Shown one piece after another: positions 57,467-58,968 of a stretch of DNA of 64,000 nt. A program made the position numbers and the translations under genes. The first letter of the stretch is position 1; the number at the start of each line of letters is the position of its first letter. The DNA is from Escherichia coli (GTDB lineage Bacteria > Pseudomonadota > Gammaproteobacteria > Enterobacterales > Enterobacteriaceae): the NCBI RefSeq assembly GCF_003334305.1, contig NZ_QOWS01000009.1; one strand, written 5' to 3'. The notes below the pieces were generated by a model. That model had not been told where the DNA came from, searched no databases, and saw only the letters and a list, made by a program, of their open reading frames with translations.

Positions 57467-57829
57467 ATGTTTCTAAACTATTTCGCGTTGGGAGTGCTGA
57501 TCTTCGTCTTTCTGGTGATTTTTTATGGAATCATCGCGATACATGACATCCCTTATCTGATTGCCAAAAAGCGCAACCATCCCCATGCCGACGCTATTCA
57601 TACGGCGGGCTGGGTGAGCCTGTTTACTCTGCATGTTATCTGGCCGTTTCTGTGGATCTGGGCGACGCTCTATCAACCGGAGCGTGGCTGGGGTATGCAG
57701 TCACATGTTGCGTCGCAGGAGAAAGCGACTGACCCGGAAATCGCCGCACTTTCTGACCGAATTTCCCGGCTGGAGCATCAACTCGCCGCCGAGAAAAAGA
57801 CTGACTATTCCACGTTCCCGGAGATCTAA
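57467..57829 (+). CDS. yibI: DUF3302-family small inner membrane protein YibI
   Basis: 120-aa ORF with two hydrophobic helices. Confidence 0.88.
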
Positions 57830-57831
57830 TT

Positions 57832-58968
57832 ATGGATCTATTGATTGTTTTAACTTACGTGGCGCTGGCGTGGGCGGTCTTTAAAATCTTCCGCATTCCG
57901 GTAAATCAGTGGACGCTGGCGACGGCGGCGCTGGGAGGCGTGTTTCTGGTGAGTGGTTTGATTTTGTTGATGAACTACAACCACCCTTACACTTTTACCG
58001 CGCAAAAGGCAGTGATAGCGATCCCTATCACGCCACAGGTGACGGGAATTGTTACTGAAGTCACTGACAAGAATAATCAGCTTATTCAAAAGGGCGAGGT
58101 GCTTTTTAAGCTCGACCCGGTTCGTTACCAGGCGCGAGTTGACAGACTTCAGGCTGACCTGATGACGGCGACGCATAATATAAAGACGCTGCGTGCGCAG
58201 CTCACTGAAGCGCAGGCCAACACCACCCAGGTTTCAGCGGAGCGCGACCGTCTGTTTAAAAATTATCAACGTTACTTGAAAGGCAGCCAGGCGGCGGTGA
58301 ATCCGTTCTCGGAACGTGACATCGACGATGCGCGGCAAAATTTCCTCGCGCAGGATGCGCTGGTGAAAGGCTCGGTGGCGGAGCAGGCGCAGATCCAGAG
58401 CCAGCTCGACAGTATGGTTAACGGCGAGCAATCGCAGATTGTGAGCTTAAGAGCGCAACTTACTGAAGCAAAATATAACCTTGAGCAGACTGTCATTCGC
58501 GCGCCGAGCAATGGCTACGTTACTCAGGTACTGATCCGCCCAGGTACATACGCAGCTGCCTTGCCGCTGCGTCCGGTGATGGTCTTCATCCCCGAGCAAA
58601 AACGGCAAATTGTCGCCCAATTTCGGCAAAACTCGCTGTTACGTCTGAAACCCGGCGATGATGCGGAAGTGGTGTTTAACGCGCTACCTGGGCAGGTGTT
58701 TCACGGCAAACTGACTAGTATTTTACCTGTCGTGCCAGGCGGTTCTTATCAGGCGCAGGGGGTATTGCAATCATTAACGGTCGTGCCCGGCACGGACGGT
58801 GTGCTGGGAACCATTGAACTGGACCCTAACGATGATATCGATGCCTTACCCGACGGCATCTACGCCCAGGTGGCGGTTTACTCCGACCATTTCAGCCATG
58901 TTTCGGTGATGCGGAAAGTGCTGCTAAGAATGACCAGCTGGATGCATTATCTTTATTTGGATCATTGA
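57832..58968 (+). CDS. yibH: HlyD-family membrane fusion-like protein YibH
   Basis: 378-aa ORF; N-terminal TM helix, long coiled coil, barrel-like C-terminus; 2-nt gap after yibI. Confidence 0.88.

Follow-up and report, generated by a model that had tools for sequence, protein, structure and literature searches.

yibI-yibH of Escherichia coli: a DUF3302 membrane protein paired with an EmrA-type periplasmic adaptor and no linked pump gene

Background

What does a periplasmic adaptor of the efflux type do when no pump gene stands beside it? The question is raised by yibI and yibH, two adjacent genes in a stretch of 64,000 nucleotides of Escherichia coli DNA (RefSeq assembly GCF_003334305.1, contig NZ_QOWS01000009.1; the whole stretch is the window referred to below). 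yibI (57467..57829, plus strand; ATG start, TAA stop at 57827-57829) encodes a DUF3302 protein of 120 amino acids and yibH (57832..58968, plus strand; ATG start) a predicted EmrA-like periplasmic adaptor (membrane fusion protein) of 378 amino acids. An earlier note, made from the DNA letters alone, had placed the two genes 2 nucleotides apart, had read YibH as an HlyD-type adaptor with no cognate pump gene nearby, had pointed to a paralogous pair named yiaW-yiaV and had called the function undefined. The open reading frame (ORF) map, the sequence and the RefSeq annotation agree on both genes and on the 2 nucleotides (tt) between the yibI stop codon and the yibH ATG. Several E. coli chromosomes match this DNA at 100% identity, and their RefSeq annotation has yibI as a DUF3302 domain-containing protein and yibH as an HlyD family secretion protein.

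The function is indeed still undefined: a 2024 review of the y-ome lists yibH and yibI as uncharacterised (PMC11551758), and full-text searches found no functional study of yibH, yibI, yiaV, yiaW or DUF3302. yiaV is an uncharacterised orphan under TC 8.A.1.1.4 (PMC10971958), and a 2025 review of TolC names eight TolC-dependent pumps, with YibH and YiaV not among them. E. coli K-12 keeps two intact copies of the module (yibIH and yiaWV), and both belong to the few remaining adaptors of the efflux type to which no pump, cargo or phenotype is assigned. As yibI and yibH are long-annotated orphans, the bare observation is not new; what goes beyond it is the coupling of DUF3302 to the adaptor across phyla, the two-helix membrane anchor of the adaptor and the operons that include an outer-membrane factor (OMF).

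DUF3302 and YibH-type adaptors form an obligate gene pair

We fetched 165 loci from Gammaproteobacteria, Alphaproteobacteria, Campylobacterota and metagenomes, which together hold 173 DUF3302 ORFs. A scan of one genome per species contributed 72 loci with 80 of these ORFs (from Enterobacterales, Alcanivorax, Pseudomonas, Ferrimonas, Aeromonas, Shewanella, Vibrio, Rhizobium and Mycoplana); the further 93 came from a metagenome scan seeded with distant family members and from exact-protein look-ups. In the one-per-species scan, the adaptor gene follows on the same strand in 79 of 80 cases, and the lone exception is a sequence that ends 48 nucleotides past the DUF3302 gene. The gap between the two genes is -4 to +9 nucleotides in the 75 pairs with complete adaptor genes, save one pair with a start-call artefact of the longest ORF. 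Across the entire set, all 161 DUF3302 ORFs with more than about 130 nucleotides of downstream DNA have a YibH-type adaptor downstream on the same strand, mostly at a distance of -8 to +16 nucleotides and in a few loci of about 80-110 nucleotides. DUF3302 and the YibH-type adaptor are an obligate, co-inherited and tightly spaced gene pair across phyla.

DUF3302 is a small family, with 819 representatives (50% identity) among 1.84 billion proteins, and the partners of the adaptors range from 105 to 190 amino acids. Relatives of YibI are always short and stand-alone: no natural fusion of DUF3302 to an adaptor was present among the top YibI relatives, and a search of AFDB50 with the fused YibI-YibH model described below returned no fusion, every target being at most 464 amino acids long.

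Within E. coli, the yibI-yibH locus is found in 5407 of 5426 complete genomes, chromosomal in every case, and at least 5384 of the 5426 have intact copies. When the orthologues of Escherichia sp. E1V33 and Citrobacter are taken for comparison, both genes have a ratio of non-synonymous to synonymous substitution rates (dN/dS) of 0.02-0.04; this is strong purifying selection and yibI and yibH are therefore functional genes rather than chance ORFs. One single complete genome, E. coli RM10410 (NZ_CP042350.1, 4194367-4197816), has an IS4-like insertion sequence (IS421) inserted in yibI, and in 35 of the 5426 genomes the best match is merely 60-80% identical, that is, the yiaWV paralogue alone is left. 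In these rare strains, the yibIH module is therefore dispensable.

YibI is a two-helix protein with a conserved His/Asp-rich core

YibI matches the Pfam family DUF3302 (PF11742) with E=3.3e-41 over model positions 1-76 of 77, and no NCBIfam model matched it. The protein consists of two membrane helices, a conserved connecting segment rich in histidine and aspartate and a variable C-terminal tail of about 45 residues with one helix. The signature of the family (residues 26-68; 57542..57670, plus strand) opens with HDIPY-x3, closes with WPFLWIWA and is the best-conserved part of the two-gene module, with a mean conservation per column of 0.86-0.89 in the core versus 0.28 in the tail. In 146 distinct sequences, the five histidines H26, H38, H40, H45 and H56 are conserved to 97-100%, as are D27 and R36; D42 is conserved to 93% and the four tryptophans W49, W59, W63 and W65 to 98-100%. 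The loop carries on average 2.6 Lys/Arg and 2.9 Asp/Glu, which leaves the positive-inside count indecisive for topology. A search of the DUF3302 profile against PDB sequences gave membrane-helix composition noise only (rhodopsin helices, E about 0.002), and the PADLOC defence models gave no match for YibI and only coiled-coil noise for YibH (E about 0.005).

YibH has an EmrA-type adaptor fold with two N-terminal membrane helices

YibH has Pfam matches to CusB_dom_1, HlyD_D23 and Biotin_lipoyl_2 and passes the generic adaptor model TIGR01730 (RND_mfp) with 99.9 bits at a cut-off of 94.9 bits. It stays below the cut-offs of the specific subfamily models, with 113.5 bits for EmrA/EmrK (TIGR00998, cut-off 390.8), 110.9 bits for MdtN (NF007785, cut-off 376) and 75.1 bits for AaeA (NF007850, cut-off 400). 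By these profile scores, YibH is akin to the EmrA/EmrK, MdtN and AaeA subfamilies and a member of none. Its closest relative among solved sequences is E. coli EmrA (E=1.7e-11).

An AlphaFold2 prediction of YibH from its single sequence reached a predicted local distance difference test (pLDDT) score of 53; only its hairpin and its membrane helices could be relied on, and its beta domains were of no use. We therefore replaced it with a model of a fused YibI-(GGGGS)6-YibH chain, predicted from a 35-row paired alignment of non-redundant adjacent gene pairs. This model, which bears on the folds and not on the interface, has a mean pLDDT of 80.5, with most of YibH above 85. In YibH, strands are followed by two long helices and again by strands, as expected of a lipoyl domain split by an alpha-hairpin and followed by a beta-barrel. 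When this structure was compared with the PDB by Foldseek, EmrA of the EmrAB-TolC complex (8zal_A) came first (E=7e-20, TM-score 0.71, alignment over 308-338 columns), and MacA, AcrA, MexA and ZneB came next; the adaptor matches EmrA, MacA, AcrA and MexA all have a probability of 1.00. The model thus predicts for YibH a true periplasmic adaptor fold of the HlyD/EmrA type (HlyD family, TC 8.A.1), in line with the architecture that the earlier note had read from the domains.

The order of elements in YibH is that of EmrA: an anchor, a lipoyl domain split by a long alpha-hairpin, a beta-barrel and a C-terminal helix, with no membrane-proximal domain. EmrA has a single N-terminal helix, no membrane-proximal domain and a terminal helix packed on the base of its hairpin; in the 2025 cryo-EM structures of EmrAB-TolC, six copies make up a tube whose tip contacts the tip of TolC (PMC13139468; PDB 8zal/8zar). 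YibH differs from it in several respects: the two proteins share about 20% identity, YibH has two N-terminal membrane helices instead of one, and, in contrast to EmrA, it ends in a hydrophobic, aromatic helix of high conservation. The partner gene differs too, as no emrB-like gene is linked to a YibH-type adaptor and the partner is always DUF3302.

The membrane hairpin of YibH (residues 1-53; 57832..57990, plus strand) consists of two hydrophobic helices with a basic loop and ends with NYNHPY; the predicted helices are residues 2-19 and 26-49 (positions 149-169 and 176-200 of the fused model). Across the family, the loop averages 2.7 Lys/Arg and no Asp/Glu, which argues for a cytoplasmic loop and a periplasmic N-terminus. 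Y9, F17, K18, P23, N25, W27, G35, G36, H51 and P52 are conserved to at least 95%. The long alpha-helical hairpin (residues 96-220; 58117..58491, plus strand) is the putative OMF-docking element; its helices, 96-152 and 161-220, are confident in the AlphaFold2 prediction even without an alignment. Its length varies across the family, whose adaptors have 314-437 amino acids, and its conservation is only 0.36, compared to 0.66-0.81 for the membrane hairpin and the even higher value of the YibI core, so that the membrane parts of the module are where selection is strongest. The C-terminal helix (residues 355-378; 58894..58965, plus strand) is conserved as well, with R361, L364, L365, R366 and W370 found in 93-96% of sequences, and is modelled at fused positions 505-521 with a pLDDT of about 90. 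We had considered that this helix returns to the membrane and dropped the idea, because the terminal helix of EmrA packs on the hairpin base.

No pump gene accompanies the pair

In the 64 kb that match the window, the RefSeq annotation of an identical strain contains no efflux pump. The search was extended to the 165 loci by clustering all flanking ORFs and by running jackhmmer from AcrB, EmrB, MacB and AaeB. No gene of the ATP-binding cassette (ABC), resistance-nodulation-division (RND), major facilitator superfamily (MFS) or FUSC type was found as operon partner in these loci, and a FUSC-type (AaeB-like) protein was absent from them altogether. The sole RND pump gene (L120; the loci of the set carry L numbers) lies on the other strand with its own AcrA-like adaptor, the sole EmrB-like genes (L017 and L039) are each part of a complete EmrAB-like operon that has an EmrA of its own and lies at a distance of 6-7 kb on the other strand, and the other MFS and ABC matches are unrelated and at least 2.9 kb distant. 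The earlier note had named an adjacent pump gene in relatives and the lack of an adaptor fold as outcomes that would speak against its view: relatives have no such gene as operon partner, and the predicted fold is that of an adaptor.

The closest parallel in gene layout is aaeX-aaeA-aaeB, where the gene for a small two-helix membrane protein immediately precedes the adaptor gene, as it does in yibI-yibH. The core of AaeA aligns with YibH (25% identity, E=2e-16); judging from the alignment offset, AaeA would have one membrane helix instead of two. The aae operon has the FUSC-type pump AaeB, whereas none of the 165 DUF3302 loci has a FUSC gene. The same combination of a small membrane protein, an adaptor and a FUSC-type pump is encoded by ydhIJK and ytcA-mdtNOP. 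We also considered whether DUF3302 is a homologue of AaeX (DUF1656) and rejected this: the hhalign probability is 0.1% and no DUF1656 match was obtained up to an E-value of 10. Judged by these profile comparisons, YibI resembles AaeX only in the position of its gene and in size.

Some operons include an outer-membrane factor

In ten independent loci the operon also contains a gene for an OMF of the NodT family, in three gene arrangements: OMF-DUF3302-adaptor in a low-GC organism (L076-78), DUF3302-adaptor-OMF (L092, L094, L103, L110, L132, L163-167) and DUF3302 followed by an adaptor of 437 amino acids and the OMF (L107). Scores of the OMFs against TIGR01845 are 233-248 bits in L110, L103 and L092, with a cut-off of 210. 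The main group with OMF linkage is Campylobacterota (Nitratifractor, Hydrogenimonas and Sulfurovum). In L110, DUF3302, adaptor and OMF form a self-contained unit flanked by one divergent and one convergent gene, and the finished Sulfurovum sp. NBC37-1 genome has the genes for DUF3302, adaptor, OMF and a Na+/H+ exchanger in this order, the exchanger gene following the OMF gene without a gap.

The L107 locus represents a variant subfamily: in it, a remnant of a MexE-like RND adaptor (129 N-terminal amino acids, 2355-2744) precedes DUF3302 (2780-3109), and after a gap of 111 nucleotides come the 437-amino-acid adaptor, which has a longer hairpin (3221-4534), and the NodT OMF (4650-5222). This suggests that the module may have displaced an RND operon there or derived from one.

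The exchanger of Sulfurovum is one of five independent cases, in loci of differing GC content, in which a gene for a CPA1-type K+/Na+:H+ antiporter (about 409 amino acids) lies beside the module. The antiporter gene abuts the OMF gene without a gap in Sulfurovum NBC37-1 (L163, 10364-11593) and in L103 (3468-4694), precedes the unit in L158 (3-320) and is near to it in L089/L093 (7887-9107) and L117 (3-449). It could be a lineage-specific energising partner of the module or merely be co-regulated with it.

A possible conduit without a classical pump

We propose that YibI and the membrane hairpin of YibH together replace the pump in a conduit coupled to TolC or another OMF, and assign this reading a probability of roughly 0.4. 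In the proposed mechanism, YibI would be a two-helix DUF3302 protein of the inner membrane paired with YibH, and YibH would oligomerise to give a tube of adaptors in the manner of EmrA, MacA and AcrA. The alpha-hairpins of this tube would dock to an OMF, in E. coli to TolC or another unlinked OMF, while YibI and the YibH membrane hairpins would form a membrane ring at the position where an MFS, ABC, RND or FUSC pump would sit. Substrate entry, or coupling to protons or cations, might take place at the conserved His/Asp cluster of YibI. The physical contact between YibI and YibH, the oligomeric state, the docking to TolC and the direction of transport are all things that we infer.

AcrAB-TolC, MacAB-TolC and HlyBD-TolC share the adaptor fold with YibH, and the OMF gene in the operon of ten related loci is a further likeness. 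The differences from these classical tripartite systems are that yibIH lacks an RND, ABC or MFS component, a membrane-proximal domain and a lipid anchor; the place of the pump gene in the classical operons is taken here by a gene for a DUF3302 protein of 105-190 amino acids. Because of the pairing across phyla, the two-helix anchor, the absence of a pump from the operons and the presence of an OMF in some of them, we place the module as a variant of the tripartite-efflux theme and not as a plain member of an existing subfamily. A more general idea, which we put forward with considerable doubt, is that DUF3302 and two-helix-anchored adaptors are an unrecognised class of OMF-coupled conduits without an ABC, RND, MFS or FUSC pump, with the small, His/Asp/Trp-rich DUF3302 protein itself as the unit for translocation and coupling in the inner membrane. 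In some lineages, such a conduit may work with the CPA1 antiporter or with an MscK-like channel. If DUF3302 does replace the pump, the module would be a new minimal inner-membrane architecture for tripartite envelope machines, with consequences for the entry of cargo into TolC-type ducts and for the energetics of export.

Several findings weigh against the proposal. Neither an ATPase nor a recognised proton-coupled transporter is present that would account for the energy source, and the antiporter gene that follows the OMF gene without a gap in two loci leaves room for a partnership with a transporter in some lineages. The linkage to an OMF is far from general: among 32 metagenome-derived loci that are visible in full, it is found in 8 (7 of the 18 whose adaptors are short, 1 of the 14 whose adaptors are long), and an adjacent OMF gene is present in none of the 66 loci from gamma- and alphaproteobacterial genomes, which are of the E. 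coli type. The OMF accompanies mostly short-hairpin adaptors and not those of the E. coli type. In E. coli, however, TolC is encoded apart from the systems that it serves (TolC review); for its partners there, the lack of a linked OMF gene is normal. yibH has served as a neutral chromosomal integration site (PMC5852967), and no efflux phenotype is reported for yibIH in the literature searched. The hairpin tip is a further point. AcrA and MacA use an R-x3-L-x6-S (RLS) motif at the tip of the hairpin in tip-to-tip docking, and we confirmed its residues in the sequences of AcrA (R128/L132/S139) and MacA (R131/L135/S142). The strict motif is absent from the tip of E. coli YibH, which has an insertion of about 9 residues there; it is present in 3 of 35 family representatives, and OMF-linked members retain the L and S positions only. 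Since E. coli EmrA has no strict motif either and still docks to TolC, the missing RLS is weak, non-discriminating evidence.

Alternative explanations

The mundane explanation is that the pump is encoded elsewhere: YibH would be an ordinary adaptor for an unlinked pump (a 14-helix MFS, FUSC-type or CPA-type protein) and YibI a small accessory protein, like AaeX for AaeAB or AcrZ for AcrB, making YibH an ordinary new member of the EmrA-like adaptors. This is plausible, as the nearest families (EmrA/EmrK, MdtN and AaeA) and the nearest structure (EmrA) all work with a pump, the aae operon has the same layout of a small-protein gene before the adaptor gene and the unlinking of TolC from its partners in E. 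coli is a precedent; the CPA1 antiporter genes that abut the unit in Sulfurovum and L103, precede it in L158 and are near to it in L089/L093 and L117 can be read in the same way. Yet linkage to a pump would be expected at least sometimes, and none of the 165 loci has a pump gene in the operon. DUF3302 is also far more conserved than a typical accessory peptide and is not homologous to AaeX (hhalign 0.1%), and the three-gene units of DUF3302, adaptor and OMF look complete without a pump. We rate an unlinked pump as plausible but less likely than the conduit. A reading that we rate somewhat lower still dispenses with the conduit and sees in the module an envelope-spanning tether, sensor or regulator for ion, osmotic or envelope homeostasis, with the adaptor scaffold bridging the distance to the outer membrane or to lipoproteins in it. 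Here the recurrent neighbours fit well, being genes for ion handling and the envelope (CPA1, MscS/MscK-like and Ion_trans_2) and not for drug pumps, as do the lipoprotein genes (DUF3313, YscW/YbaY-like and DUF4136) found directly upstream of DUF3302. The reported phenotypes are mild and point towards the envelope: human urine induces yibI, and deletion of the gene in strain UTI89 gave a competitive index of 0.33 in urine and lower adhesion to bladder cells (PMC5404293); deletion of yibH in Klebsiella led to fewer plaques by evolved phages (PMC11796411); and deletion of yiaW increased the efficiency of Ca2+ transformation, as cited in PMC12844161. However, each of the neighbour associations is limited to a few lineages and none is universal, the OMFs in the operons are channel proteins whose only known role is that of an exit duct, and the adaptor fold, including the long hairpin, is fully kept.

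The last alternative, that yibI-yibH is what is left, decaying and without function, of an efflux operon after the loss of its pump, could draw on the absence of a pump and of a strong phenotype, on the use of yibH as a neutral integration site, on the insertion sequence in yibI of one strain and on the Rhs debris next door. It is effectively refuted by the selection and conservation data: dN/dS is 0.02-0.04, at least 5384 of 5426 E. coli genomes have intact copies, the two-gene unit is kept from Alphaproteobacteria to Campylobacterota and a second, paralogous pair is maintained.

The yiaW-yiaV paralogue

The paralogue named in the earlier note exists: yiaW (107 amino acids) and yiaV (378 amino acids) are 5 nucleotides apart, belong to the same two families in the same order and lie 16 kb from yibIH in strain 300709, with aldB-yiaY-selBA-yibF-rhsA in between. 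YibI and YiaW are 75% identical and YibH and YiaV 77%. The yiaWV pair differs in its flanks (the LysR regulator yiaU and aldB) and in the shorter tail of YiaW. Nearly all E. coli genomes carry it, the median number of places per genome being 2. As yiaWV is equally uncharacterised, no function can be transferred from it to yibIH. In macrophage-adapted E. coli, yiaW was struck by IS1, which was not the cause of the phenotype (PMC5495878).

In Citrobacter, which does not have the Rhs insertion, the yibIH-like and yiaWV-like pairs are about 8.6 kb apart. Many Enterobacterales have two pairs, one yibIH-like and one yiaWV-like, that flank yibF-selAB-yiaY-aldB at a distance of about 8.6 kb from each other, and some have a third, more divergent pair elsewhere (L004-L011, L018 and L020 of Citrobacter spp., L042/L043, and L057/L060/L068 of Serratia). 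The presence of two or three pairs per genome means that the module was duplicated as a unit more than once.

Gene layout and expression signals

A Shine-Dalgarno-like GAGG (57458..57461, plus strand), read from the sequence, lies 5 nucleotides before the ATG of yibI. The Shine-Dalgarno site of yibH, GGAG (57820..57823, plus strand), lies within the last codons of yibI, 8 nucleotides before the yibH ATG. The spacing of the genes and this internal site would fit coupled translation; the two genes form one operon that is co-transcribed and probably co-translated. Upstream, yibI is separated from the divergent mtlA (55017-56930, minus strand) by an intergenic region of 536 nucleotides (56931..57466), in which the promoter of yibIH must lie. 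A study by genomic systematic evolution of ligands by exponential enrichment (SELEX) lists 'yibIH' with a constitutive sigma-70 promoter located here (PMC3946193). In our consensus scan of the locus, promoter-like sites were no more common than in shuffled sequence; terminator-like sites were about 2 standard deviations above shuffled sequence, with none downstream of yibH. An Rfam scan of the locus and its flanks matched no family, and a repeat search at the locus gave short chance matches only.

Other neighbouring genes

Genes for ion channels lie near the module in a few loci. In L166/L167, a K+-channel-like Ion_trans_2 gene (6831-7535) is just upstream of the DUF3302-adaptor-OMF unit and a gene for a MscS/MscK-like mechanosensitive channel of 788 amino acids (10347-12713) follows 5 nucleotides downstream of it; a second Ion_trans_2 gene is found upstream in L079 (7002-7389). 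These neighbours hint at a link to monovalent-cation or osmotic homeostasis.

In several Gammaproteobacteria, the gene directly upstream of DUF3302 on the same strand encodes a predicted lipoprotein, with a family that differs by lineage: DUF3313 in Serratia and Pseudomonas (L057, 9289-9960; L060; L068; L063, 9070-9849), YscW/YbaY-like in Alcanivorax (L059, 9013-9918; L069) and DUF4136 in L074 (6909-7439, with a further entry at 7539-7946). A DUF2092 LolA-like gene recurs as a lineage-limited neighbour. Eight loci from marine-sediment metagenomes have a reductive dehalogenase gene upstream (TIGR02486, 184 bits with a cut-off of 160; L084, L086 at 6602-9679, L088, L090, L091, L109, L127 and L135), which may be one lineage counted repeatedly; the dehalogenase cluster also holds a small membrane anchor and a NosR/NapH-like membrane protein of the flavin mononucleotide/iron-sulfur kind.

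In the window, yibIH is flanked on one side by mtlA, mtlD and mtlR (mtlADR) on the opposite strand and on the other side by debris of an Rhs element. The debris is AT-rich, lies directly 3' of yibH (59000-64000) and contains minus-strand ORFs at 59428-59865, 60572-61033, 61045-61989, 62031-62888 and 63333-63863. Its contents are an Imm57-like immunity ORF, the Sel1-repeat protein YibG, a fragment of an Rhs C-terminal core and toxin, the HEAT-repeat protein YibA and a further Rhs tip. In strain 300709, these genes next to yibH are annotated partly as pseudogenes. It is this Rhs insertion that parts yibIH from its paralogue yiaWV in E. coli.

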